Shown piece by piece: positions 52,639 to 64,000 of a stretch of 64,000 nucleotides of DNA. The position numbers and the translations under genes are program-made. Under the pieces are notes generated by a model. The model was not told where the DNA came from. It was given only the letters and a program-made list of their open reading frames with translations, and made no database searches. This DNA is from Ideonella sp. GTDB lineage: Bacteria; Pseudomonadota; Gammaproteobacteria; Burkholderiales; Burkholderiaceae_C. The DNA lies in NCBI RefSeq assembly GCF_044358605.1, contig NZ_JBIKNQ010000013.1, positions 3,032 to 67,031 of the forward strand, given 5' to 3'. Numbering within the stretch: the first letter of the stretch is position 1; each line of letters starts with the position of its first letter.

Positions 52639-54495
52639 ATGTCTTGGGCTGGAAAACTTCTCCGCGTCAACCTGACCAACGGCACGGTGGCCTCTGAGCC
52701 GCTGCGCATGGATTGGGCCAAGCAATACCTGGGCTCGCGTGGCCTGGCGTCTAAATACCTGGTCGAAGAAATCGACCCCAAGGTCGACCCGCTGTCGCCC
52801 GACAACAAAATCATCTGGTCCACCGGCCCGCTGACCGGCACCATGGCCTCCACCGGCGGCCGCTACACCGTGGTCACCAAGGGCCCGCTGACAGGCGCCA
52901 TTGCCTGCTCCAACTCGGGCGGCTACTGGGGCGCCGAGCTGAAGATGGCCGGCTGGGACATGGTCATTTTTGAAGGCAAGTCACCCAAGCCGGTGTACCT
53001 GTCCATCGAAAACGATGTGGCCGAACTCAAAGACGCTTCGCACCTCTGGGGCAAGACGGTTTGGGACACTGAGAAAGCCATCAAGGCTGCTCACCAAGAC
53101 CCGCTGGCTCGGGTCTCCAGCATCGGTGGTGCTGGTGAGAACCTCGTGCTGTTCGCCGCTGTGGTGAACGACCTGCACCGTGCAGCCGGCCGCTCGGGCG
53201 TGGGCGCAGTGATGGGCAGCAAGAACCTGAAGGCGGTGGTGGTGCGTGGCACCAAGGGCGTGGGCAACTTGGTCAACCCCAAGGAGTTCATGCGCGTCAC
53301 GGCCGAGAAGAAGAAGATCTTGGCCGAGAACGGCGTCACTGGCGTGGGCCTGCCCGCCATGGGCACCCAGGTGCTGATGAGCGTGATCAACGAAGTGGGC
53401 GCCCTGCCCACCCGCAACCACCGCGATGTGCAGTTTGAAGGTGCAGGCGACATTGGCGCTGAAGCCATGGGCCGCCCCCGCACCGCACCGGGCAGCGACG
53501 GCAAGAAGCCCCTGGTCACCAACCAAGCCTGCTTTGGTTGCACCATTGCTTGCGGCCGCATTCAAAAGATCGACCAGAACCACTTTACCGTCGAGAACAA
53601 GCCGCAATACTGGGGTGCCTCTGGCGGCCTGGAGTACGAAGCGGCTTGGGCCCTGGGCGCTGCCAACGGCGTGAACGACCTGGACACCCTGCAATACGCC
53701 AACGTGCTGTGCAATGAGCACGGCATGGACCCCATCACCTTCGGCGCCACCATCGGCGCGGTGATGGAACTGTACGAAATGGGCGTGCTGACCAAAGAGC
53801 AAATTGGCATCGACGCCAAATTTGGCTCGGCCCAAGCGCTGGCTTACTTTGCCGAAATCACGGCCAAGGGCGAAGGCTTTGGCAAAGAGATCGGCCAGGG
53901 CTCTAAGCGCCTGACCGCCAAGTACGGCCACCCGGACCTGTCCATGTCGGTCAAGGGCCAAGAGTTCCCAGCCTACGACGGCCGTGGCATCCAAGGCATT
54001 GGCTTGGCTTATGCCACGTCCAACCGCGGTGCTTGCCACCTGCGCGGCTACACCATCGCCTCTGAGGTGCTGGGCATCCCTGTCAAGACCGACCCGTTGG
54101 AATCTAACGGCAAACCTGAGCTGGTTAAGGCCTTCCAAGACGCCACCGCCGCGTTTGACGCCGCCGGCGTGTGCATCTTCACCAGCTTTGCCTGGGGCTT
54201 GGCCGATGTGCAGCCGCAAGTGGCCGCCGCCTGCGGCGACGAGTTCACCCTGGAGAACTTGAACACCATCGGCGAGCGCATCTGGAACATGGAGCGTGAT
54301 TTCAACAACCGCGCTGGCTTCACCTCCAAAGATGACTCCCTGCCCAAGCGCCTGCTGACCGAGCCCGCCAAGACCGGCCCCGCCAAGGGCATGGTCAACA
54401 AGCTGGGCGAGATGCTGCCGATCTACTACGACATCCGTGGTTGGGACGCCGACGGCCAGCTCAAGCCAGAGACCCGCAGCCGTCTGGGTCTGTGA
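52639..54495 (+). CDS. aorB: tungsten-pterin aldehyde:ferredoxin oxidoreductase-family catalytic subunit (AorB type)
   Basis: MSWAGKLLRVNLTNG..., GSRGLASKYL, ACFGCTIACGR plus GACHLRG (4Fe-4S ligands); 618 aa. Confidence 0.9.
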   Translation: MSWAGKLLRVNLTNGTVASEPLRMDWAKQYLGSRGLASKYLVEEIDPKVDPLSPDNKIIWSTGPLTGTMASTGGRYTVVTKGPLTGAIACSNSGGYWGAELKMAGWDMVIFEGKSPKPVYLSIENDVAELKDASHLWGKTVWDTEKAIKAAHQDPLARVSSIGGAGENLVLFAAVVNDLHRAAGRSGVGAVMGSKNLKAVVVRGTKGVGNLVNPKEFMRVTAEKKKILAENGVTGVGLPAMGTQVLMSVINEVGALPTRNHRDVQFEGAGDIGAEAMGRPRTAPGSDGKKPLVTNQACFGCTIACGRIQKIDQNHFTVENKPQYWGASGGLEYEAAWALGAANGVNDLDTLQYANVLCNEHGMDPITFGATIGAVMELYEMGVLTKEQIGIDAKFGSAQALAYFAEITAKGEGFGKEIGQGSKRLTAKYGHPDLSMSVKGQEFPAYDGRGIQGIGLAYATSNRGACHLRGYTIASEVLGIPVKTDPLESNGKPELVKAFQDATAAFDAAGVCIFTSFAWGLADVQPQVAAACGDEFTLENLNTIGERIWNMERDFNNRAGFTSKDDSLPKRLLTEPAKTGPAKGMVNKLGEMLPIYYDIRGWDADGQLKPETRSRLGL

Positions 54496-54620
54496 GGGCT
54501 TGCTGAAGACCGCCACAGAGACACAGAGGCACAGAGAGAGAGAAGCCCAGGGCTTTGCTAGCTCAACCCGCTGGCGTCTCTGGCGGAGGGCCTTTGTGGC
54601 TGTGGCGTCAACCTGACCCC

Positions 54621-54647
54621 AAGGCGGTGCTGAGCACCGCCTTTTTT
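54621..54647 (+). terminator. strong rho-independent terminator inside the aor operon, between aorB and aorC
   Basis: AAGGCGGTGC-tga-GCACCGCCTT running into TTTTTT. It ends 16 nt before the aorC ATG. Confidence 0.7.
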
Positions 54648-54662
54648 CTGAGACCATTCACC

Positions 54663-56060
54663 ATGAAGCACGTCATCCTCGGTGCCGGCCCGGCCGGTGT
54701 CATTGCGGCCGAGACCCTCCGCAAGCACGCCCCCAACGACCAGATCGTGGTCATTGGCGACGAGCCCGAAGCGCCCTACTCCCGCATGGCCATTCCTTAC
54801 CTGCTGATTGGCAAGGTTGGTGAAGAAGGTACCCACCTGCGCCACACACCCGGCCACTTTGCCGCGCTGCGGGTGGAGCTGCGCCATGGCCGTGCCAAGG
54901 CGGTGGACATCACCGCCCGCGCCGTGGTGCTGGAAGACGGCAGCCGCGAGTCGTTTGACAAGCTGCTCATCTGCACCGGCTCTTCGCCCGTGCAGCCCCC
55001 CGTGCCCGGCATCACCGGCCCCGGCGTGCACACCTGCTGGACGCTGGAAGACGCTCGCGCCATCATGACCCTGGCCAAGCCGGGTGCGCGCGTGCTGCAG
55101 ATGGGTGCGGGCTTCATCGGCTGCATCATCATGGAGTCACTCGCCATGCGCGGCGTGCGGCTCAGCGTGGTGGAAATGGGCGACCGCATGGTGCCCCGCA
55201 TGATGGGCCCCACCGCCGGCCGCATGATCAAGCAATGGTGCGAAGCCAAGGGCGTGAAGGTCTATACCGGCGCGCGGGTGGATGCGATTGAGCGCGCGGG
55301 CAGCGCCGCCGCTGCGCCAGCACCGGCCGCCGCCGAGCCCGGCCTGCTCAGCAAGCTGGCCTCGGCCATCGGCCTGGGCAGCGCGCCAGCACCCGCCCCA
55401 GCACCCGCTGCGGCGGCGGGCAGCGCCAGCGGTGCGATGCAGGTCAAGCTCTCTACCGGGCAAGTGCTGGAAGCCGACTTGGTGATCTCCGCCACCGGCG
55501 TGCGGCCCAACATCGGCTTTCTGGAGAACAGCGGCATCACCTGCTTGGTGGGCATCCTGACCGACGAACACCTGCAAACCAATGTGCCCGGCATCTATGC
55601 GGCGGGCGATTGCGCCGAAGCCTTTGACAAGGTCAGCGGCAAGACCATCGTCAGCGCCATCCAGCCCAATGCCGCCGAGCAAGCCCGCGTGGCGGCCCTG
55701 AACATGGCAGGCCAAACCACCAGCCTGAAGGGCGTGACCCAGATCAACGTGCTGGACACGCTGGGCATGATCTCCGCCAGCTTTGGCAAATGGGACGGCG
55801 TGCCCGGCGGCCAGCATGTGGAGCTGACCGACGAGGCCAATGGCAAGCTCTTAAGCCTGCAGTTCGACCACGAAAAACTGGTGGGCTGCAACTCCATCGG
55901 CTGGACCGAGCATGTGGGCGTGATGCGCGGCCTGGTGGAAGGCGAAGTGAAACTGGGTGAGTGGCGCGAGAAGCTGATGGCCGACCCCACGCAGTTGATG
56001 AGCGCCTACCTGGCCACGGCCCAGGCCCAGAGTGCCCATGCGCACATCAAGCCTCGGTGA
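54663..56060 (+). CDS. aorC: FAD-dependent pyridine-nucleotide oxidoreductase subunit (AorC type)
   Basis: MKHVILGAGPAGVIAAE (FAD), QMGAGFIGCI (NAD), AAGDCAE. Start trimmed to ATG 54663. Confidence 0.85.
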   Translation: MKHVILGAGPAGVIAAETLRKHAPNDQIVVIGDEPEAPYSRMAIPYLLIGKVGEEGTHLRHTPGHFAALRVELRHGRAKAVDITARAVVLEDGSRESFDKLLICTGSSPVQPPVPGITGPGVHTCWTLEDARAIMTLAKPGARVLQMGAGFIGCIIMESLAMRGVRLSVVEMGDRMVPRMMGPTAGRMIKQWCEAKGVKVYTGARVDAIERAGSAAAAPAPAAAEPGLLSKLASAIGLGSAPAPAPAPAAAAGSASGAMQVKLSTGQVLEADLVISATGVRPNIGFLENSGITCLVGILTDEHLQTNVPGIYAAGDCAEAFDKVSGKTIVSAIQPNAAEQARVAALNMAGQTTSLKGVTQINVLDTLGMISASFGKWDGVPGGQHVELTDEANGKLLSLQFDHEKLVGCNSIGWTEHVGVMRGLVEGEVKLGEWREKLMADPTQLMSAYLATAQAQSAHAHIKPR

Positions 56061-56067
56061 TTGCACC

Positions 56068-56336
56068 TAGGGCCTGTTAACACTACGGCAAGGGGACGCG
56101 TTGTGAGTCAAAAAGGACGCAGGCAAGACGCAAACCGGAGCCGGGCTGCCCGCCCGGCGAGGATTTGCAACGCCGCATGCGCCCTTTTTGGCCACAACCC
56201 GAAGGGAAGCGGCGACTTGGGGTGCCCCTCGTCGTTGCAACGCTTGCCCGCACATCAGTGCGGGCGGCGCATTGCGCCTAGATGGGCACCCCAATTCACC
56301 GCTTCGCGCCCCTTGCCGAAGTGTTAACAGGCCCTA
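56068..56336. mobile_element. MITE-like element, family B (269 bp) with 28-bp terminal inverted repeats
   Basis: TAGGGCCTGTTAACACTACGGCAAGGGG at 56068-56095 matches the reverse complement of 56309-56336 at 27 of 28 positions. TA at both outer ends. Two long internal hairpins. Confidence 0.65.
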
Positions 56337-56346
56337 ACATCGCCGC

Positions 56347-56601
56347 ATGCAAATCACCTTCAAGCTCTTTGCCACGCTGACCGACTACCTGCCGGTCGAC
56401 AAGCGCAACAGCAACCAGATGGCCCTGGAGGTGGCCCCCGAGGCCACCATCCTGGGCATCATCGAGCCCTTTGGCGTGCCGCTCAAGCTGGTGCACTTGG
56501 TGCTGGTCAACGGCACCTATGTCCCGCCCGAAGAGCGCGCCAGCCGCACCCTGCAAGAGGGCGACGTCCTCGCCATCTGGCCGCCCATTGCGGGTGGGTG
56601 A
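56347..56601 (+). CDS. aorD: MoaD/ThiS-family sulfur-carrier-like protein (AorD position)
   Basis: 84 aa, MQITFKLFATL..., C-terminal ...PPIAGG. Confidence 0.8.
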   Translation: MQITFKLFATLTDYLPVDKRNSNQMALEVAPEATILGIIEPFGVPLKLVHLVLVNGTYVPPEERASRTLQEGDVLAIWPPIAGG

Positions 56602-56607
56602 GGCTGA

Positions 56608-56907
56608 GTGCCCACGATCCCAGAAACCTTCAGCCGCGACACCGGCGGCACCCCCGCCGACTGGCTGCGTTGGCTGCCCGGCGCCTGCCGTAAGCACGCC
56701 CTAAGCCTGCCCACCGAGCACAGCGCCATCGTCACGATTGGCCAAGGCTCGCTCCACCTGCACTGGGACGTGCTCCCCCCTCGCGCCCTGGGCCTAGCCC
56801 GCTTTCCTCACCTGATGGTGAGCTATCGGTTTGAAGGCGTGGGCGAGTCTGAACGCGAGACGTTCATGCGCTATTTCGACCTGTATATGCAGCGGGGTGG
56901 AGGCTGA
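56608..56907 (+). CDS. small conserved-looking hypothetical protein, last gene of the aor cluster
   Basis: GTG start 56608, 99 aa, no motif recognised. Coding assumed from position and codon bias. Confidence 0.5.
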   Translation: MPTIPETFSRDTGGTPADWLRWLPGACRKHALSLPTEHSAIVTIGQGSLHLHWDVLPPRALGLARFPHLMVSYRFEGVGESERETFMRYFDLYMQRGGG

Positions 56908-56916
56908 CCGCAGCCC

Positions 56917-58305
56917 TTAGACGGCCAAGCGGCACACCTGCTCACCCAGCCTCGTCAGATGCTCGTCCAAGGCCTTCAGGCACACCGGCCAGTCAGCTGA
57001 GAAGCGTGTATCCAAGGCCAAGTTCGCACGCCAATCCAAAGCCAAACTCAGCGCCTGGTGCCATACCGCATTGGGCACCGCAGCCCGCAGCGCACTGCGT
57101 GGCAACTCTGTTGGCAAGCCCCCGCCGCTGCGCGGTGCCAAGCCCATGGGCAACATGTCATAGGCCGGTGCCAAAGAATAGGGCTTGCCCACATCCGACA
57201 TGAATGAGAGGTTGCCGTGGTGCATGTCGGTGTTGCCGATCAGCGTGCCATAGGCATAAAGCAGACAGGCACGGTCTGCCGCCTCGCGGGTGATGAGCCC
57301 AGCCTGAGCCAAGCGGGCCGCCAACACCGGCCAAGGCGACGTGGCGTCTCCCAGGAATTCAGCTTCCAGCGCAGCCAGTGAGAACAGCGCATGGCGCCCG
57401 CGTGGGCCTACACGGTCAAAGCGCTCCACCTCCAAGAAGCGCTGATGCCCCTGGTCGATCACCGTGCTGGCGGCCGCGGCAATGCCCGCCCGCCGCAAGG
57501 TCTGCAAAGCATGGTGTTCGGCCAGCAGCAAATCTCGCCAACGTCGACTGACAGGGTGGTCCTCAAGCACGCTGAACTTCACCAGCACATGCCGGGACTT
57601 GGCCGTTTCATCCTCGGCATAAGCCAAAAACTTGGGTTGCTCGCCGCCTGCGGACGACGCCGGCAATTCGCCACGTGCGGCCTGCTCTGACATGCGCGCA
57701 TAGGCCACAGCCCTGTCCGCCAAGCGCACCGCTACAGGCTCGGCTGCGCTGACGAAGGCATCGCGCATGGCTTCGCCCAGCAGCAAATTACCCGGAGCAT
57801 CTTGTCCGTGGCGCAACAGGGCTTGCAAGGCTTGCGTCTCACCCCAATCCGAGAGTGACGCAGGCAGACCCAAGGCAGGCGCAACTTGCACCGCATAGGC
57901 GCGGCCCAGGTAGCCCTGGGGCAGCATGTCTTGCATCCACCAAGGCAGGCCTTCGCTGTACGTGGCACTCAACCTGCCCCCTCGCACGCTTGGGGCCGCC
58001 ACCTCAAACACCCAGCCCTGCGGGCGAACCGGGCACAGGCGGCCGAGGTCGGAAGCGCGCCCCTGGGCATCCACCTGAAACACGGCCATGTCGGGCAGGC
58101 CCCGACCTTTATCACGCACCGCGTAGTGAATAGACACCCCAGCACCCGTGCGCAGCACCTCCCCCCCCATGGCCGCCAAAGCGCGCGACAAGGTGGGCTG
58201 GCTCACTCCAAGGCCTTGGGCCAATGCCGCCCCTGTGCAAGGCCCCGCCTTCAGCGCCTGGCGAATCGCTAGGGCCTGCTCTGCAAGTCGAGATGGGCGG
58301 GCCAT
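56917..58305 (-). CDS. HipA-family Ser/Thr kinase with a fused N-terminal HTH domain (YjjJ/HipH type)
   Basis: N-terminal GAALAQGLGVSQPTLSRAL. Kinase motifs SSAGGEQPKF, GNTDMHHGNLSF, APAYDMLPM. No separate HipB-like gene is adjacent. Confidence 0.8.
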   Translation of the reverse strand: MARPSRLAEQALAIRQALKAGPCTGAALAQGLGVSQPTLSRALAAMGGEVLRTGAGVSIHYAVRDKGRGLPDMAVFQVDAQGRASDLGRLCPVRPQGWVFEVAAPSVRGGRLSATYSEGLPWWMQDMLPQGYLGRAYAVQVAPALGLPASLSDWGETQALQALLRHGQDAPGNLLLGEAMRDAFVSAAEPVAVRLADRAVAYARMSEQAARGELPASSAGGEQPKFLAYAEDETAKSRHVLVKFSVLEDHPVSRRWRDLLLAEHHALQTLRRAGIAAAASTVIDQGHQRFLEVERFDRVGPRGRHALFSLAALEAEFLGDATSPWPVLAARLAQAGLITREAADRACLLYAYGTLIGNTDMHHGNLSFMSDVGKPYSLAPAYDMLPMGLAPRSGGGLPTELPRSALRAAVPNAVWHQALSLALDWRANLALDTRFSADWPVCLKALDEHLTRLGEQVCRLAV

Positions 58306-58336: not shown

Positions 58337-58548
58337 TACTAAATCATGCCAGAGACGCGATGCCGCCACAAGACGCCGTGGCCAAGCCCCTGCGGCGGTC
58401 ACCCCACCTCCGCTGCCGCTAAAGCGCCGCCTTTGCCAGCTTTTTCGCACCAATAGGCGCTCAATCTGCCCTCTATGGTGTGCACCGTGGGCAAAGCGCG
58501 GGCAGTGGGTGCCTGTGTCTGCCCCAGACACTGCTGCACCACTGCCTC

Positions 58549-59739
58549 ATGCCACCTCGTCCGCCGGACTATCTTGCCGTCATCGCCAGCCCTTGCTTTT
58601 CTTGCGGGGTGACGCTGGTCATCGACATGCTTTTGCTGCTGGGTGTGCGGGTGGACTTCATCAACCACAGCACGCGCGCACCACACCCTTATTGGCGCCA
58701 ACGCGCCGATGGACGCTGGGAGTTGAGTGCGGCGGGCAAGGGCCACTTTGGCTTTCATTCCAAGCTGGCCAGCAAGCAAGAGAGTTTTGACTTCCCCGAG
58801 GGCCGCGCGGTGCTGATCGGCCACAACCCGGCCATGGTGCGCTACCTAGCCCCCAGCACCCGCGCGGTGATGGTGGTGCGTGACCCGGTGGATGCCATTT
58901 ACTCGTGGCAGCGGCGGCAAAACGTGGCCGCCTCGGGCATCACGTTTGAGGAGTACCTGCAGCAGGTGCTGTACTTCAACGTGCACAAGCCCTATGGCAT
59001 TTTTCAGTCCACGCCGCTGGAACTGTATGCCCTGTTTTGCGCCTTCTGGCTCAGCGCGGCGGGTGAATGCCATGTGATGGGCTATGAAGACTTCAAGGCG
59101 GGGCCTGAGCCCTTTGTGGACCTGATGGCCTATCTGGGCGTGCCGGTGGCCGCTGCCGAGGTGCACGCCGCCTTTGCCCGCGTAGAGTCAGGCAGCGAAG
59201 CCCCGGCCCGCATCGAGCAATACCAGCTCTGCAACCTCAAGGGCCAACCGCGCGAGTGGACGCAGCGCATGGCCGCCAGCGAGCACGCTGCTCTCCTGGC
59301 CGGGCCACTCAAGCAAGCGGTCTATGGCCTGCTGGGCTACAGCAGCCACGCCACCGACTGGGCTGCGGCCACCCAAGCGCCCGGCCAAAGCTATGGCCTG
59401 ATCAGCGGGCTGATGGACGCCCTGGGCCAGCAGCTCAGCGACGAGCGAGACCCGGTGCCGGTGCACACGGCCATGGAGTTGACGCTGCAGACATTCAAAG
59501 ACGAGTTCCAGCGCCATGTGCCCTCGCGCACCGCCGAGCTCTACACCCTGCCCGCCATCGAGCACGACTGCACCCAGGCCTTCAGGGCCGTGACCCGCTT
59601 TGTGCGCGAGGTCTACACCGCCCAAGACCAGATCCCCTTCTGGCGCCTGCGCAATCTCACGCTGCAACTCACCGGCCTGATCGCCAACAGCGCTGGCAAC
59701 CCGAACGTGCGGCACATGGTGGCCGAACGCTTGATCTGA
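58549..59739 (+). CDS. sulfotransferase-fold protein with a C-terminal extension of about 170 aa; candidate group transferase of the downstream pathway
   Basis: 3'-phosphate-binding-like motif VMVVRDPVDAIYSWQRR. Degenerate 5'-PSB-like loop VIASPCFSCGVTLV. Start uncertain (ATG 58549 or GTG 58480). Confidence 0.55.
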   Translation: MPPRPPDYLAVIASPCFSCGVTLVIDMLLLLGVRVDFINHSTRAPHPYWRQRADGRWELSAAGKGHFGFHSKLASKQESFDFPEGRAVLIGHNPAMVRYLAPSTRAVMVVRDPVDAIYSWQRRQNVAASGITFEEYLQQVLYFNVHKPYGIFQSTPLELYALFCAFWLSAAGECHVMGYEDFKAGPEPFVDLMAYLGVPVAAAEVHAAFARVESGSEAPARIEQYQLCNLKGQPREWTQRMAASEHAALLAGPLKQAVYGLLGYSSHATDWAAATQAPGQSYGLISGLMDALGQQLSDERDPVPVHTAMELTLQTFKDEFQRHVPSRTAELYTLPAIEHDCTQAFRAVTRFVREVYTAQDQIPFWRLRNLTLQLTGLIANSAGNPNVRHMVAERLI

Positions 59740-59741
59740 GC

Positions 59742-60299
59742 ATGGCTGCCGCTGCTTCATCCCTTCCCCCACCTGGCCGCGTGGTCTGGATCACCGGGCT
59801 CTCGGGCGCGGGCAAGTCCACGCTGGCTGAAGCCCTGGTTTCCACCCTGCGTGGCGCGGGCGAGCCGGTGGTGATGCTGGACGGCGATGCGCTGCGCGAG
59901 GTGTTTGGCGCGGTGGATGCCCAGCACCATGGCCGAGCAGCCCGCCTAGGCTTGGCCCTGCGCTATGCCCAGCTCTGCAAGACCCTGGCCGACCAGGGCG
60001 TGACCGTCGTCATCGCCACCATCTCGCTGTTCACCGAGGTGCATGCCTGGAACCGCCAGCACCTGCCCGGCTATGTGGAGGTGCTGCTGGACGTGCCGCT
60101 GGCCGAGCTGCGCCGCCGTGACCCCAAAGGCATTTACCGCCGCTTTGATGCGGGCGAGCTGCAGGACGTGGCGGGGCTGGACCTAGCTGTAGACCTGCCC
60201 AGCGCACCCCACCTGCACCTTCTACACGACCCAGCGCGCCCCATCAGTGCGCTGGTTGATGCCGTCATTCAACACCTTCACACAAGGACCTCACCATGA
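59742..60299 (+). CDS. adenylylsulfate-kinase-fold nucleotide 3'-kinase (CysC / Cj1415-like)
   Basis: WITGLSGAGKSTLA, MLDGDALR, VEVLLDVPLAELRRRDPKGIYRRF; 185 aa. ATG lies 2 nt after the upstream stop. Confidence 0.85.
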   Translation: MAAAASSLPPPGRVVWITGLSGAGKSTLAEALVSTLRGAGEPVVMLDGDALREVFGAVDAQHHGRAARLGLALRYAQLCKTLADQGVTVVIATISLFTEVHAWNRQHLPGYVEVLLDVPLAELRRRDPKGIYRRFDAGELQDVAGLDLAVDLPSAPHLHLLHDPARPISALVDAVIQHLHTRTSP

Positions 60300-61114
60300 C
60301 CATGGCCACCACCACCGAGCGCCCCGCCACCGTGTCCACCGCCCTGCGCGCGGGCGACTTCACCGGCTTGGCGCAAGACTATTCACAACACCGGCCGGAC
60401 TATGCGCCCTCGGTGCTGCAAGGCCTGCTGGGCCTGTTGGGCAAGCCCGTGGCCGAGGTGGACTTTGCCGACGTGGGTGCGGGCACCGGCATCTGGACCC
60501 GCCAGGTGCAAGCCAGCGGCGTGCGCTGCGCCACCGCTGTGGAGCCCAACACCGACATGCGCACCCACGGCCAAGTGGCCAGCGCCCACACCCCCATCCG
60601 CTGGCTGCAAGGCAGTGCCGAGCAGACCGGCCTGGCCAGCGCCAGCGCCGACTGGTTGACCATGGCCTCCAGCTTTCACTGGGCACAGTTTGAGGTCGCC
60701 ACGGGCGAGTTCCACCGGGTGCTACGCCCGGGAGGCCGCTTCACCGCGCTGTGGAACCCGCGCCTGATCGAGGTCAACCCCCTGCTGGTGGAGATCGAAG
60801 CCCACCTGAGCACCCTGCGCAGCGACATCAAGCGCGTGTCCTCGGGCCGCTCGGGCATCACCGAAACCCTCTCGGAGCAGCTCTGGGCCTCGCCGCACTT
60901 TGAAGACGTGGTCTACCTGGAGGGCCGCCATGTGATCAGCATGACCCCAGCCCGCTACCTGGGCGCCTGGCGTTCGGTCAATGACCTGCGCGTGCAACTG
61001 GGGGCCGACAAGTTCGAAGCCTTCTTGGCCTATGTGGAAGAGCGCATCCGAGGCCAGGCCAGCATTGAAGCCACCTACCTGACCCGGGCCTGGTCGGCCC
61101 GCCGCAAAGGCTGA
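60296..61114 (+). CDS. class I SAM-dependent methyltransferase
   Basis: Motif I DVGAGTGIWT, later LRPGGRF. ATGA overlap with the kinase gene. Confidence 0.85.
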   Translation: MTMATTTERPATVSTALRAGDFTGLAQDYSQHRPDYAPSVLQGLLGLLGKPVAEVDFADVGAGTGIWTRQVQASGVRCATAVEPNTDMRTHGQVASAHTPIRWLQGSAEQTGLASASADWLTMASSFHWAQFEVATGEFHRVLRPGGRFTALWNPRLIEVNPLLVEIEAHLSTLRSDIKRVSSGRSGITETLSEQLWASPHFEDVVYLEGRHVISMTPARYLGAWRSVNDLRVQLGADKFEAFLAYVEERIRGQASIEATYLTRAWSARRKG

Positions 61115-61118
61115 GCCC

Positions 61119-63434
61119 ATGCGCCCGATGTTCTCCACTAAGGCTGGCACCCTGGCCGCGCTGCAGGGCACGCTGCGCAGCGCCCGCATAGCACCCCTGT
61201 GCGTGTTCACCGTGCAGCAATGGCGGGAGAGCCCCACGCAGTGCCTGGCCTGGATCGGAGCCCAAGCGGGCCAAGGCCCGTGGATCGTGCGCTCTAGCTG
61301 CCTACAGGAAGACAGCCAAACCGCGTCCAACGCTGGGGCTTACTTGTCGGTGCCGCAGGTGACGGCGGCCACGCTGGCCGCGTCCATCAACCAAGTGATC
61401 GCGTCCTACGGCCAGCCGCAAGCAGCCGACGAGGTGCTGGTTCAGCCCATGCTGCAAGCAGTGCTGCGCTCGGGCGTGGCCTTCTCGCACGACCCCAACA
61501 CCCAAGCCCCTTACCGCGTGGTGAACTGGTCCGAAGGCAGCGACACCGCCCAGGTGACCGGCGGCGCCGGTGGCCGCATGTTTGTGCAAGCGGCGCAAAG
61601 CCCCGTGGCCCCGCCACCTGAGCTGGCCCCCGTGCTGGGCTTGGTGGACGAACTGTTGAGCCTTCTTGAAGGCGCCCCGTTGGACTGTGAATTTGCTGTT
61701 ACGCGTGATGGCGCTGACGAGCAGCTGTGGCTGCTGCAAGCCCGCCCCCTGGTGCTGGCCCAAGCGCCGGAGACGGATGCCCAGCAAGCCGAGCGCCTGG
61801 CGCGCATTCAGCAGCAGGTGCAGCGCGGCATGCAGCCCCACCCCTTTTTGATGGGCCAGCGCACGGTGTATGGCGTGATGCCCGACTGGAACCCAGCCGA
61901 GATCGTCGGCATCCGGCCTAAGCCACTGGCGCTGTCGCTCTACCGCGAGCTGGTCACCGACTCCATCTGGGCCTATCAGCGCCACAACTACGGCTACCGC
62001 AATCTGCGCAGCTTTCCGCTGATGCCGCATTTCTACGGCCTGCCCTATGTGGATGTGCGGCTGTCCTTCAACTCCTTCATCCCGGCCGACCTGGACGACG
62101 CCTTGGCCGGGCGCTTGGTGGACCACTACATCAACCGCTTGCTGGCCGAGCCCAAGCTGCATGACAAAGTGGAGTTTGAGATCGTCTTCTCTTGCTACAC
62201 CCTAGATTTACCCCAGCGCCTGGAGCGCCTGGCCGAAGCCGGCTTCAGCGCGGCAGAGCGCGAAACCATTGCCAACAGCCTGCGCCAGTTGACCAACCGC
62301 ATCGTCCACCCGCAAGACGGGCTGTGGCGCAGCGACGCGGCCAAGCTGGACACCCTGAAGGCCCGCCGCGAAGCGCTGATGGCGTCCAACGCCGACCCGC
62401 TGGAGCGCATCCACTGGCTGCTGGAAGACGGCAAGCGCTATGGCACCCTGCCCTTTGCAGGCCTGGCGCGCGCAGGCTTTGTGGCCGTGCAAATGCTCAA
62501 GTCTCTGGTGGCGGTGGGCGTGTTCTCGCCCGCCGACTACGAGGCCTTCATTGCCAGCGTGTCCACCGTCAGCGGCCAGTTGGCCCATGACCAAGCCACG
62601 CTGCACAAAGACGATTTCTTGGCACGATACGGCCACCTGCGCCCAGGCACCTACGACATCCTCTCGCCCCGCTATGACGAGCAGCCTGAGTTGTACTTTG
62701 ACTGGAGCCAACGCCCGGCCGCGCCGCGCGCCAGCACGCCGTTTTCGGTGACGCTGCCGCAAATGCGCGAGGTGGTGAAGATGCTGCAAGCCCACGGCCT
62801 GCAGCCCGACCCTGTCGGCCTGTTCGACTTCTTACAGGCCGGTATCGAGCTGCGCGAGTTGGCCAAGTTCCACTTCACCCGCAATCTCTCAGACGCCATA
62901 AAGCTGATGGTCCAAGTGGGCGAGCCCCTGGGCTTCAGCCGCGACGACTTGGCCTTTTGCGACATCAGCGCCTTCAAAGAGCTGCACATGGGAGCGGCCG
63001 ATCCGCGCGAGGTGCTGGGCCGCAGCATCGCCCAGGGCCGCGAGCGCTATGCGCAGACGCTGAAGGTCTCGCTGCCGCCGCTGATTGCCAGGCCGGACGA
63101 TGTGTGGTCTTTTGAGATGCCAGAGACCGCGCCCAACTTCATCACCCAAGGCCAGGTCACCGCCGAAGTGGCCACCTGCACCGACCGCAGCAAACTGGCC
63201 GGGGCCATTGTCTGCATCCCCAATGCCGACCCCGGCTTTGATTGGCTGTTCGCCTACCCCATTGCGGGCCTGATCACCGCCTGGGGTGGCGCCAACTCCC
63301 ACATGGCCATCCGCGCGGGCGAGCTGGGCCTGCCCGCCGTGATTGGCGCCGGTGAAGTGATGTACAAACACTGGGCAGGCAGCCGCCGCGTGCACATGGA
63401 CTGCGCGGGGCGCCGTGTGGAGATGATCAATTGA
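61119..63434 (+). CDS. PEP/pyruvate-binding (ATP-grasp) plus C-terminal swivel-histidine phosphotransferase lacking a TIM-barrel domain; candidate L-glutamine kinase (Cj1418-like)
   Basis: 771 aa. N-terminal FSTKAGTLAALQG...WIVRSSCLQED. C-terminal mobile domain GGANSH(728)MAIRAGELGLPAVIGAG. Confidence 0.7.
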   Translation: MRPMFSTKAGTLAALQGTLRSARIAPLCVFTVQQWRESPTQCLAWIGAQAGQGPWIVRSSCLQEDSQTASNAGAYLSVPQVTAATLAASINQVIASYGQPQAADEVLVQPMLQAVLRSGVAFSHDPNTQAPYRVVNWSEGSDTAQVTGGAGGRMFVQAAQSPVAPPPELAPVLGLVDELLSLLEGAPLDCEFAVTRDGADEQLWLLQARPLVLAQAPETDAQQAERLARIQQQVQRGMQPHPFLMGQRTVYGVMPDWNPAEIVGIRPKPLALSLYRELVTDSIWAYQRHNYGYRNLRSFPLMPHFYGLPYVDVRLSFNSFIPADLDDALAGRLVDHYINRLLAEPKLHDKVEFEIVFSCYTLDLPQRLERLAEAGFSAAERETIANSLRQLTNRIVHPQDGLWRSDAAKLDTLKARREALMASNADPLERIHWLLEDGKRYGTLPFAGLARAGFVAVQMLKSLVAVGVFSPADYEAFIASVSTVSGQLAHDQATLHKDDFLARYGHLRPGTYDILSPRYDEQPELYFDWSQRPAAPRASTPFSVTLPQMREVVKMLQAHGLQPDPVGLFDFLQAGIELRELAKFHFTRNLSDAIKLMVQVGEPLGFSRDDLAFCDISAFKELHMGAADPREVLGRSIAQGRERYAQTLKVSLPPLIARPDDVWSFEMPETAPNFITQGQVTAEVATCTDRSKLAGAIVCIPNADPGFDWLFAYPIAGLITAWGGANSHMAIRAGELGLPAVIGAGEVMYKHWAGSRRVHMDCAGRRVEMIN

Positions 63435-64000
63435 AAATTGCAGTGAGCCAGCGGGTCGACCACTGGCCCGACCGGCCCGAAACCCGCGACGCCCTGGACC
63501 AAGACCTGATCGAGTTTTTGGTGACGGCCGGGGCCTTGCCCCTGCCGGTGAGCAACCGGCTCATCTTCTGCGGCCAAGCCTTGGCGCAATGGTTAGAGGC
63601 CCTGCAGCCAGACGCCGTGCTGCTGAGTGGCGGCAATGACATTGGCCGGGTGCGCGAGCGCGACCTGACCGAGCAGGCCTTGCTGGCCTATGCCCAGTAC
63701 CACCGCCTGCCCGTGCTGGGCCTGTGCCGGGGCATGCAAATGCTGGCGCATTGGGCGGGCACACCGTTGCGCAAGGTGGAGGGCCATGTGGCCAGCACCC
63801 ACCAGCTACACGGTCGCCTGAGCGGCAGCGTCAACAGCTTTCACACCCAAGCCTTGGCCGAATGCCCGCCCGGCTTTGAGGTGCTGGCCCACAGCGAAGA
63901 TGGCGTGATCGAGGCCATTCAGCATCTGGACCTGCCGTGGCAGGGCTGGATGTGGCATCCCGAGCGCTGCCATCCCTTTGAGGCCAGCGACATACAGCGG
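63431..64000 (+). CDS. class-I glutamine amidotransferase / peptidase C26 gamma-glutamyl hydrolase family protein (Cj1417-like), truncated by the window end
   Basis: Own translation, since the gene runs off the window: LKIAVSQRVDHW...LPVLGLCRGMQMLAHW...GWMWHPER. TTG 63431 overlaps the upstream stop; GTG 63443 is an alternative start. Confidence 0.75.
   Translation, partial: MKIAVSQRVDHWPDRPETRDALDQDLIEFLVTAGALPLPVSNRLIFCGQALAQWLEALQPDAVLLSGGNDIGRVRERDLTEQALLAYAQYHRLPVLGLCRGMQMLAHWAGTPLRKVEGHVASTHQLHGRLSGSVNSFHTQALAECPPGFEVLAHSEDGVIEAIQHLDLPWQGWMWHPERCHPFEASDIQR

Follow-up and report, generated by a model that had tools for sequence, protein, structure and literature searches.

Does a protein with the fold of a sulfotransferase attach the phosphoramidate group in bacteria that carry Campylobacter-like genes for O-methyl-phosphoramidate biosynthesis? 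The question is raised by a 64,000-nucleotide stretch of DNA from an Ideonella sp. (the window), in which the gene for a 396-amino acid protein adjoins homologs of those genes. The Campylobacter route ends in 3'-phospho-CDP-amidate, a look-alike of PAPS that, like it, consists of a 3'-phosphonucleoside plus an activated 5' group. The MeOPN transferases of C. jejuni, Cj1421 and Cj1422, were defined genetically (PMC3907429, PMC9561416), and as of 2025 no in vitro reconstitution of MeOPN transfer to the glycan had been achieved (PMC12409886, PMC11800397). In 31P NMR the phosphoramidate gives a signal near 14 ppm (PMC7901785). The O-methyl-phosphoramidate modification has been described as Campylobacter-specific (PMC9561416). 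A first-pass annotation of the window had proposed that the 396-amino acid protein is a phosphoramidyl transferase that uses the PAPS look-alike as donor. The fold, the pocket and the co-occurrence of genes described below support this reading; the activity and the acceptor are only inferred.

The gene and its operon

The coding sequence, identified in the list of open reading frames and by its translation, runs on the forward strand from an ATG at position 58549 to the end of the stop codon at 59739. The same open reading frame has a longer alternative, a GTG start at 58480. However, homologs begin 9–13 residues ahead of the sequence SPCFSCG, which favors the start at 58549. The open reading frame of the first-pass annotation is real; two public contigs encode an identical protein with the start called at the same place. 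The GC content of the gene (0.646) lies within that of its neighbors (0.63–0.68) and gives no signal of recent horizontal transfer. A scan for promoters and terminators upstream found nothing.

As had been claimed, this is the first gene of a tightly packed cluster: only 2 nt separate its stop from the ATG of the kinase gene that follows, and further on neighboring genes overlap or leave a gap of 4 nt. The Cj1415-like kinase (59742..60299, forward strand, 185 amino acids) has an APS-kinase fold (Pfam APS_kinase, 3.7e-28). It exceeds the cutoff of NCBIfam NF004041/PRK05541 (193 bits, cutoff 127) and fails the true APS-kinase models (TIGR00455, 97.5 versus 138.7; NF003013, 93.5 versus 163), and it is a candidate CDP-amidate 3'-kinase. 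It is followed on the same strand by a class I SAM-dependent methyltransferase of 272 amino acids (60296..61114; Methyltransf_11, 2.2e-13), a gene found in the cassette at most of the closest 80 of 509 genome loci. Then comes a Cj1418-like PEP-utilizing/PPDK-type enzyme of 771 amino acids (61119..63434, forward strand; Pfam PPDK_N and PEP-utilizers), a candidate L-glutamine kinase. It matches NCBIfam NF004508 (PRK05849; E = 2.3e-299, 995 bits versus a cutoff of 501), of which Cj1418 itself is presumably a member. The last gene in the window, recognized from its translation, codes for a Cj1417-like class I glutamine amidotransferase/Peptidase_C26 and is cut by the end of the window (63431..64000, forward strand). 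Its best NCBIfam match is gamma-glutamyl-CDP-amidate hydrolase (NF045546 equivalog); although its fold and position are those of Cj1417, it stays below the equivalog threshold (95 bits versus a cutoff of 250). A Cj1416-like nucleotidyltransferase gene lies just beyond the window end: in an identical contig, L002, a 201-amino acid GATase is followed by a 244-amino acid NTP_transferase. Besides the gene for the 396-amino acid protein, the operon holds no further unassigned gene. A DUF2330 protein was ruled out as a component of the system, since it is missing from all other loci. The operon of the window is not inside a polysaccharide cluster and therefore no acceptor can be named.

Fold and predicted active site

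The AF2 model of the protein reached a pLDDT of 91.7 and a pTM of 0.93, and in a Foldseek comparison with the PDB the top 45 matches were all PAPS sulfotransferases (probability 0.69–1.00, at least 0.9 in 43 of them; TM about 0.5 normalized to the target). A profile built from 35 sequences of the family matched human SULT2A1 with E = 1.4e-14 over a region spanning the 3'-phosphate motif and the RKG...DW loop. These results agree with the sulfotransferase fold that had been proposed. The protein on its own scored below the gathering thresholds of both Pfam models of the Sulfotransfer_1/3 pair (Sulfotransfer_1, 16.1 bits versus 22, E = 0.0075; the second model, 15.3 bits versus 27). No NCBIfam model matched it, and a two-sequence profile found no relative in the PDB. 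Many relatives score above the Sulfotransfer_1 cutoff and carry the name "sulfotransferase domain-containing protein". Retinol dehydratase (1X8K/1FMJ), which has a sulfotransferase fold and a net reaction other than sulfation, ranks high in both the structural and the sequence comparison, an indication that the fold has already been recruited for chemistry beyond plain sulfation. Retinol dehydratase differs from what is proposed for the 396-amino acid protein in that it still depends on PAPS, has the canonical loop and carries out chemistry unrelated to phosphorus.

Besides the fold, the protein has in common with PAPS sulfotransferases (Sulfotransfer_1/3; SULT2A1, 1J99; mouse SULT1D1, 2ZVP; estrogen sulfotransferase, 1AQU) the R...S motif and the K-G...(D/E)-W loop that bind the 3'-phosphate, and its proposed donor is likewise a 3'-phosphonucleoside that bears an activated group at the 5' position. 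The predicted 3'-phosphate-binding motif is VRDPVDAIYSW (V110 to W120, 58876..58908, forward strand). HMMER aligned VRDPxDAIYS with YLMRNPRDVLVS of SULT2A1 (E = 1.4e-14), matching the R-x7-S spacing to RNPRDVLVS. In an alignment of 35 family sequences with identities of 17–28% (alignment A3) the invariant residues were R111, P113, D115, S119, G20, H92 and E236. The motif had been singled out as a retained 3'-phosphate site, and the invariance of R111 and S119 together with their alignment to the SULT2A1 motif bear this out. The counterpart of the second 3'-phosphate loop, RKGxxGDWK, was located by profile alignment at N229-L-K-G-Q-P-R-E-W237 (59233..59259, forward strand). The family consensus arkGkvnEWke aligned to LRKGVSGDWKNH of SULT2A1, the loop being matched to RKGVSGDWK; the Arg is lost, and the invariant E236 takes the place of Asp.

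The position of the 5'-phosphosulfate loop of sulfotransferases (PKxGTT) is occupied by S14-P-C-F-S-C-G20 (58588..58608, forward strand; alignments A3 and A6), the beginning of SPCFSCGVT (residues 14–22, nt 58588-58614). This loop had been described as degenerate. Instead, a survey of 150 aligned members showed that the family has a different but conserved signature here, S-P-[PC]-F-[SA]-C-G: S14, P15, S18, C19 and G20 are invariant in alignment A6, G20 also in A3, and none of the 150 has a Lys or Arg in the loop. Since the loop Lys is missing family-wide while R111/S119 and K231-G232...E236-W237 are kept, the site is not a canonical PAPS site, as had been suspected. The idea that the loss of the Lys is an adaptation is an inference and does not hold universally. 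Among cassette-linked sulfotransferases, one subfamily (cluster 4) keeps G-R-S-G-S; another such protein, at locus L076, keeps S-R-T-G-T-S. A CxxC redox site formed by C16 and C19 was ruled out because C16 is Pro in most family members.

His92 (58822..58824, forward strand), identified from its invariance in A3 and the secondary structure of the model, is a candidate catalytic base. In the model it closes strand 87–91, which precedes the strand of the 3'-phosphate motif, and it lies 19 residues ahead of R111; the corresponding His to Arg spacing in SULTs is 22 residues. By position it is a candidate equivalent of the His in the sulfotransferase KTHLP motif, an inference that rests on spacing and topology alone, without residue-level superposition.

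Compared with PAPS sulfotransferases, the protein has an additional helical module at its C-terminus (59356..59736, forward strand; helices 280–391 in the model). The first-pass annotation had noticed an unassigned C-terminal part of about 170 amino acids; such a part is present, but its size is about 130 amino acids (roughly residues 270–396). Its conservation is confined to the close subfamily: alignment A6 has no invariant columns past Y264, and family matches span only profile positions of about 10–270, leaving this region out. It is possible that the module serves in acceptor recognition or oligomerization.

Linkage to the cassette and the variable transferase slot

The family came to light only in an exhaustive HMMER search, word-index homolog searches having given merely 2, 3 and 3 proteins, and it comprises at least 217 clusters at 50% identity. 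At all of the informative loci inspected (about 20 independent loci, 22–32% identity, several gene orders) the family gene adjoins the same cassette, and no informative locus without it was found among them. Co-occurrence with the Cj1418-, Cj1415-, Cj1417- and Cj1416-like genes, which the first-pass annotation had put forward as a check, was therefore complete in this set. Linkage was observed in the window and L002; at the loci of P0004, P0005, P0006 and P0008, where the family gene flanks the cassette on one side or the other; at four metagenome loci, the only ones returned by a metagenome scan with a 9-sequence alignment; at eight genome loci among the closest 80 of 509, including Azonexus, Nitrospira, Rugamonas rubra and Mangrovimicrobium; on a plasmid of Azospirillum lipoferum 4B; and at the distant members P0151, P0089, P0110 and P0131. 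Among the linked members are distant ones that match the family profile with no better than E = 5e-7. The homolog of A. lipoferum 4B is WP_014189878.1, whose called start needs correction. Start/stop overlaps between the family gene and cassette genes are frequent in these loci. P0083 and P0117 combine the family domain with a SAM methyltransferase in a single protein, and in tandem proteins the family domain follows a second sulfotransferase domain. A scan of viral sequences found no relative. The N-terminal 650 amino acids of an 846-amino acid "adenylyl-sulfate kinase" from Azospirillum looked sulfotransferase-2-like by eye (IHFDLPRAAG..., VRNPFDWYISSYYW); this candidate was rejected for lack of Pfam or PDB support.

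Membership of the superfamily, with many relatives passing Sulfotransfer_1 and some cassette-linked sulfotransferases keeping an Arg-bearing loop, would also suit an ordinary PAPS-dependent sulfotransferase that sulfates the surface glycan decorated by the phosphoramidate pathway and is co-located only through the common target. We consider this quite improbable. The whole family lacks the Lys or Arg of the loop, the adjacent kinase passes PRK05541 and not the APS-kinase models, no sulfate adenylyltransferase appears in the gene tables of the loci examined, and the fusion partner is a methyltransferase rather than sulfate-activating enzymes. The neighbors of the 396-amino acid protein belong to a cytidine-phosphoramidate pathway, not to sulfate activation. 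Moreover, the linkage, complete in every informative locus and often with start/stop overlap, is far tighter than a common target would give.

A genome scan with a Cj1418-like alignment showed that the glutamine-kinase gene is present in no fewer than 509 species-level genomes, among them many of Pseudomonas, Azospirillum, Leptospira, Nitrospira, cyanobacteria and Patescibacteria; the closest 80 of these 509 loci, none of them from Campylobacter, were analyzed. Some sulfotransferase-type gene was present in 25 of the 80, other sulfotransferase subfamilies also filling the slot just upstream of the kinase, and an unrelated GT-B-like gene without any sulfotransferase-type gene was present in 31. 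The cassette, then, does not require a sulfotransferase fold. The slot directly upstream of the kinase holds differing transferase-like genes in loci whose glutamine-kinase homologs share 75–77% identity, the behavior expected of an acceptor-specific transferase. The GT-B-like proteins (cluster 0; e.g., Pseudomonas fluorescens PS662, L019:5505-6692) resemble the 396-amino acid protein in their place directly upstream of the Cj1415-like kinase, their strand and their length of about 400 amino acids, but the two are unrelated (hhalign probability 0.6%). They have no Pfam or NCBIfam match and a weak profile match to the GT-B glucosyltransferase Gtf3 (E = 2e-4), on which the assignment of their fold depends, and are presumably an alternative transferase. 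At least 8 loci, as well as the P0005 locus, have an Inositol_P (CysQ-family) gene within the cassette, which would suit a by-product such as the cytidine 3',5'-bisphosphate proposed below. This gene, the methyltransferase fusions and the other sulfotransferases in the slot are support that the first-pass annotation had not foreseen.

The protein could also bind a 3'-phosphonucleotide within the pathway without being the final transferase, which would then be encoded elsewhere; it might modify the nucleotide-bound donor, serve the methyltransferase as a scaffold or pseudo-enzyme, or transfer the group to a small molecule or a protein instead of a glycan. The missing catalytic Lys, the tandem domain order, sometimes seen with regulatory pseudo-domains, the absence of glycan genes beside the operon of the window and locus L068, which holds both a GT-B-like gene and a tandem family member, are compatible with this explanation. 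Nonetheless, the invariance of His92 and of the nucleotide-binding residues speaks for a working active site, most member loci have no other transferase candidate, and several place the family gene within polysaccharide clusters, beside Wzx or between Wzm and Wzt. We regard such a role as unlikely.

The relationship to the Campylobacter transferases was also considered. The proposed reaction is identical, transfer of the phosphoramidate from the product of Cj1415–Cj1418 to a surface glycan, and the gene likewise adjoins homologs of the same four biosynthetic genes and one or more methyltransferase genes. However, Cj1421 and Cj1422 are phase-variable through poly-G tracts, and the gene for the 396-amino acid protein has no such tract: its longest G or C run is 5, with no homopolymer of 6 or more. 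The Campylobacter enzymes could themselves hold a divergent sulfotransferase domain, making the protein their homolog and the solution a known one. They are longer (609–642 amino acids), the published accounts consulted give no structural characterization of them (PMC7901785, PMC12409886), and some family members come close to this size and carry the domain N-terminally. Yet the members of 586–606 amino acids are methyltransferase fusions with no obvious match to the Campylobacter architecture, Cj1421 and Cj1422 were first annotated as glycosyltransferases (PMC9561416), and no link between MeOPN and sulfotransferases was found in the literature searched. For the view of the first-pass annotation that Cj1421 and Cj1422 are not sulfotransferase-like, the literature offers only that early glycosyltransferase annotation. 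Judging from architecture, annotation and literature alone, we consider such homology improbable.

Proposed transfer step and its implications

A divergent sulfotransferase fold adjacent to genes for a PAPS-like donor makes the 396-amino acid protein the probable missing enzyme for attachment of the phosphoramidate, a phosphoramidyl/MeOPN transferase using 3'-phospho-CDP-amidate. We hold this assignment to be the likely one on the basis of fold, conserved residues and gene context only. The host pathway would be of a non-Campylobacter O-methyl-phosphoramidate type, with its steps inferred from those of the homologous enzymes in Campylobacter. The Cj1418-like enzyme would form phosphoglutamine, the Cj1416-like enzyme CDP-glutamine, the Cj1417-like enzyme CDP-amidate and the Cj1415-like kinase 3'-phospho-CDP-amidate, the inferred donor. 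The conserved R111/S119 pair and the K231-G232 loop may then hold the 3'-phosphonucleotide, and the S-P-x-F-x-C-G loop, replacing the Lys-bearing phosphosulfate loop, may hold the diphosphoramidate end; these roles, like that of His92, are inferred. His92 would deprotonate a hydroxyl of the acceptor, most likely a glycan, for attack on the terminal phosphorus, with release of cytidine 3',5'-bisphosphate. The methyltransferase of the operon would carry out the O-methylation before or after transfer, an order that is likewise a matter of inference.

We know of no characterized case in which a sulfotransferase fold that lacks the loop Lys carries out a phosphoryl-type transfer. Counting against the transferase reading are also the lack of biochemical data for any member and of residue-level superposition or docking, the sub-threshold Pfam score, the 31 of 80 loci with a GT-B-like gene, the location of the window's operon outside a polysaccharide cluster and the fact that loss of the loop Lys is not universal among cassette-linked sulfotransferases.

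It is quite possible, although we stop short of calling it probable, that the S-P-x-F-x-C-G family as a whole consists of unrecognized, dedicated phosphoramidyl/MeOPN transferases acting on 3'-phospho-CDP-amidate, non-homologous to those of Campylobacter and representing one of at least two unrelated folds recruited for the transfer. The transfer step of O-methyl-phosphoramidate biosynthesis becomes directly testable with a small, soluble-looking, single-domain candidate that has named putative catalytic residues, and the family is present in the cultured Azospirillum lipoferum 4B, Rugamonas rubra ATCC 43154 and Mangrovimicrobium sediminis. Confirmation would mean that a sulfotransferase fold moves a phosphorus-nitrogen group from a cytidine-based PAPS analog, and hundreds of "sulfotransferase domain-containing protein" annotations would be reassigned. 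If the proposal is true, the decoration of surface glycans with phosphoramidate would be widespread outside Campylobacter, and a modification supposedly specific to that genus would be common in environmental and plant-associated bacteria.

Operon and surroundings

The window protein is encoded by an open reading frame at 58549-59739 (+; ATG start, 396 codons), and the same start and an identical protein were called on two public contigs. The gene is the first in a compact operon with all genes on the same strand. An APS-kinase-fold protein (59742-60299, +) starts with an ATG 2 nt past its stop, followed by a class I methyltransferase (60296-61114, +; 4-nt overlap with the kinase gene), a PPDK/PEP-utilising enzyme of 771 aa (61119-63434, +; 4 nt past the methyltransferase stop) and a glutamine-amidotransferase-type protein (63431 to the window end, +; 4-nt overlap with the preceding gene). 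On the public contig L002, which carries identical genes, the last operon gene codes for a 244-aa nucleotidyltransferase. In NCBIfam, the 771-aa protein belongs to NF004508/PRK05849 (995 bits, cutoff 501), a model of which Cj1418 is presumably a member. The kinase belongs to the PRK05541 subfamily (193 bits, cutoff 127) and did not pass the bona fide APS-kinase models; the best match of the amidotransferase, under the cutoff, was gamma-glutamyl-CDP-amidate hydrolase. These matches indicated that, apart from the one methyltransferase, the neighbours are homologous to Cj1415-Cj1418 of Campylobacter, which agrees with what the first-pass annotation had assumed.

The operon has a HipA-like gene on one side and a DUF2330 gene on the other and is not within a glycan cluster. 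The divergent HipA_C-domain protein (56917-58305, −), 243 nt upstream, has an N-terminal MarR/HTH-like region; possibly a HipA-type kinase and its DNA-binding domain are here joined in one chain. A gene group at 52639-56907 (+) consists of genes for an aldehyde:ferredoxin oxidoreductase (AFOR_N/AFOR_C, E = 1e-130), for a pyridine-nucleotide-disulfide oxidoreductase and for an 84-aa protein resembling ThiS/Ub-Mut7C, together with an ORF of 99 aa that matched no family.

Fold and conserved residues

Taken alone, the window protein matched Pfam Sulfotransfer_1 below threshold (E = 0.0075, 16 bits), and no more than two relatives came from word-index searches. When 1.84 billion representatives were searched exhaustively with HMMER, the result was 217 clusters at E <= 1e-3, 86 of them at E <= 1e-10, with similarity limited to the first ~270 residues; the databases name these proteins "sulfotransferase domain-containing" or "hypothetical". 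An AlphaFold2 model built from a 35-member alignment (pLDDT 91.7, pTM 0.93) was compared with the PDB using Foldseek, and every one of the best 45 matches was a PAPS-dependent sulfotransferase (cytosolic SULTs, tyrosylprotein sulfotransferases, retinol dehydratase and heparan-sulfate enzymes). The probability was >= 0.9 for 43 of the 45, with modest E-values, from 1.4e-3, and TM ~0.5 per target. The 35-member profile matched SULT2A1 from sequence alone (E = 1.4e-14), placing VRDPxDAIYS over the R...S 3'-phosphate motif and the family K-G-x-x-x-E-W over the RKGxxGDWK loop. Together, the model, the structural matches and the profile match showed the sulfotransferase fold and, as sequence motifs, both 3'-phosphate-binding elements. 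The fold and the retained 3'-phosphate motif proposed in the first-pass annotation were thus borne out, and the two motifs that it quoted are present in the translation (SPCFSCGVT, residues 14-22; VRDPVDAIYSW, residues 110-120).

At 17-28% identity, G20, H92, R111, P113, D115, S119 and E236 are invariant in the 35-member alignment. In the model, His92 lies at the end of the strand before the motif strand, 19 residues ahead of R111; from this spacing and topology, without residue-level superposition, it is inferred to be the counterpart of the sulfotransferase catalytic His. The catalytic Lys of sulfotransferases is carried by the PKxGTT loop. At this position the family has S-P-[PC]-F-[SA]-C-G, with no Lys or Arg, and the family-wide alignment showed that the loop described earlier as degenerate has not decayed but carries a different signature that the family conserves. 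The extra C-terminal region noticed earlier exists as a helical module in the model, conserved only among the closest relatives, but comprises ~130 residues rather than ~170.

Linkage to the cassette

The cassette was present at all family loci inspected whose flanking DNA was long enough, so that the expected co-occurrence with the Cj1418-like gene held in all informative cases and no member without the cassette was seen among them; contigs of 1.5-1.8 kb and genes at contig ends were left out. With the family gene as the proposed transferase, the gene order is transferase-kinase-glutamine kinase-hydrolase-nucleotidyltransferase for family member P0004, and P0005 adds a methyltransferase and an Inositol_P gene. 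The transferase comes last in the cassette, at its opposite end, for P0006 and P0008, followed by a Wzx-type flippase in P0006, and directly 3' of the nucleotidyltransferase at four metagenome loci. Distant members (profile E-values 5e-27 to 5e-7) share the linkage: the tandem protein P0151 has the cassette close by, P0089 is within a glycan cluster, the P0131 gene overlaps the kinase gene, and in P0110, on a Paceibacterota MAG contig (L098:3979-12832), cassette and transferase lie between the genes for a Wzm permease and for a Wzt ATPase that carries a Wzt_C domain. E. coli O9a has a methyl-phosphate cap, and by analogy this arrangement suggests that the phosphoramidate could cap and terminate the chain and be recognized by the ABC exporter.

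Some family genes outside the window sit among glycan-export and sugar-nucleotide genes. On Azospirillum lipoferum 4B plasmid AZO_p6 (NC_016588.1), the member, named "sulfotransferase domain-containing protein", is within a polysaccharide region; the RefSeq start of WP_014189878.1 seems to remove its S-P-P-F-A-C-G loop. The Cj1415-like kinase there (L091:3665-6205) makes up the C-terminal domain of a protein of 846 aa whose N-terminal 650 aa had no Pfam or PDB match, with sulfotransferase-2-like motifs seen by eye only. P0003 (27% identical; L003:832-8019) is downstream of a heptose/aminosugar nucleotide set (GHMP kinase, SIS isomerase, split transketolase, DegT, epimerases), and a similar transketolase/DegT set near the Azospirillum member may, with it, hint at the acceptor sugar.

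The structural matches leave a plain PAPS sulfotransferase to be considered. Against this possibility stand the loop without Lys, the kinase subtype, the complete linkage to the cassette and the fact that none of the gene tables inspected contains genes for sulfate activation. The loop Lys is also missing from the upstream "canonical" Sulfotransfer_1 domain of tandem proteins (N-L-Q-N-S-G-S-S) and from the enzyme at locus L011 (V-A-A-G-G-T-S). Arg is kept in a Sulfotransfer_3-like subfamily (G-R-S-G-S) and at locus L076 (S-R-T-G-T-S); therefore the loop change is frequent, not obligatory. Many members are tandem, with a Sulfotransfer_1 domain before the family domain, and P0024 (1820 aa) combines Glyphos_transf (TagF-like), Sulfotransfer_1, the family domain and TPR repeats.

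Proposed transferase slot and reaction

When 185,579 species genomes were scanned using a Cj1418-like alignment, 509 relatives emerged, and the closest 80 of these (58-77% identity) were examined; the five-gene cassette was intact in ~69 and ~10 loci were too short to judge the slot gene. At least one sulfotransferase-type ORF lay within 10 kb in 25 of the 80 (within 500 nt in 20 of the 25), representing the window's family in 8, the Sulfotransfer_3-like subfamily in ~13 and other types in a few. An unrelated ~400-aa protein (cluster 0; e.g., L019:5505-6692 (+), L016:7377-8609, L031:7473-8660) is encoded within 10 kb in 31 of the 80, most Pseudomonas included, mostly immediately upstream of the kinase. 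It had no Pfam or NCBIfam match, an hhalign probability of 0.6% against the window family and a weak profile match to the GT-B glucosyltransferase Gtf3, and may be an alternative transferase, possibly Cj1421-like. Its T-D-x-S-x-G motif recalls TagF-type phosphotransferases. Among loci with glutamine kinases of 75-77% identity, different transferase-like genes stand directly before the Cj1415-like kinase gene: SPCFSCG-type in the window, SPPFACG-type with only 32% identity in Azonexus (L015), a 310-aa Sulfotransfer_3-type gene in Dechloromonas (L011) and GT-B-like in Pseudomonas. By inference, an acceptor-specific transferase would produce such a pattern, in which the genes for making the donor are conserved and the gene beside them is exchanged. 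Counterparts of the window genes at 59742-64000 (+), which form a five-gene Cj1415/methyltransferase/Cj1418/Cj1417/Cj1416-like cassette (genome loci L011-L090), are widespread. The 509 species-level genomes in which a Cj1418-like gene occurs come from many Pseudomonas and also from Dechloromonas, Azonexus, Leptospira alexanderi, Nitrospira, Cyanobium/Prochlorococcus and Verrucomicrobia, among others; a review termed the glutamine kinase C. jejuni-specific (PMC9561416).

The 3'-phospho-CDP-amidate pathway is known from Raushel laboratory work, to which PMC6429109 and PMC12409886 refer. In the reaction that we propose, four Campylobacter-type enzymes would make this donor, whose 3'-phosphate would be bound by R111, S119 and K231-G232. 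The diphosphoramidate would be cradled by the S-P-x-F-x-C-G loop where a helix begins, and His92 would activate a hydroxyl of the acceptor, which would attack the terminal phosphorus in line and release cytidine 3',5'-bisphosphate; the methyltransferase could act before or after transfer. The fold, the conserved residues and the gene linkage are shown; the donor, the acceptor and the part each residue plays in catalysis are inferences, no acceptor has been identified for the window, and the protein may instead be non-catalytic or modify the donor. In P0083 (606 aa) and P0117 (586 aa) the family domain is fused to a C-terminal SAM methyltransferase (Methyltransf_23, E = 1e-18 and 6e-24), which ties it to the methylation half of O-methyl-phosphoramidate (MeOPN). 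An Inositol_P-family gene lies between hydrolase and nucleotidyltransferase in at least 8 cassettes (L013:4570-5364, L050:12914-13711, L076:12905-13699 and five more loci; Pfam E = 1e-39 to 1e-43) and at the P0005 locus. The Inositol_P family includes CysQ, the PAP phosphatase. By analogy with PAPS chemistry, the gene fits a 3',5'-bisphosphonucleotide by-product, and its enzyme may recycle cytidine 3',5'-bisphosphate.

No paper in the literature searched ties MeOPN or phosphoramidate transfer to a sulfotransferase or sulfotransferase-like enzyme, and as of 2025 reconstitution of MeOPN transfer had yet to be achieved (PMC12409886). We propose a known fold with a new donor and a new transferred group. 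The Campylobacter MeOPN transferases Cj1421 and Cj1422 (609-642 aa) were first annotated as glycosyltransferases (PMC9561416, PMC7901785); the window protein might be their homologue. Should Cj1421/Cj1422 turn out to be similar to the GT-B-like proteins, the family with the sulfotransferase fold would be a second, independent solution.
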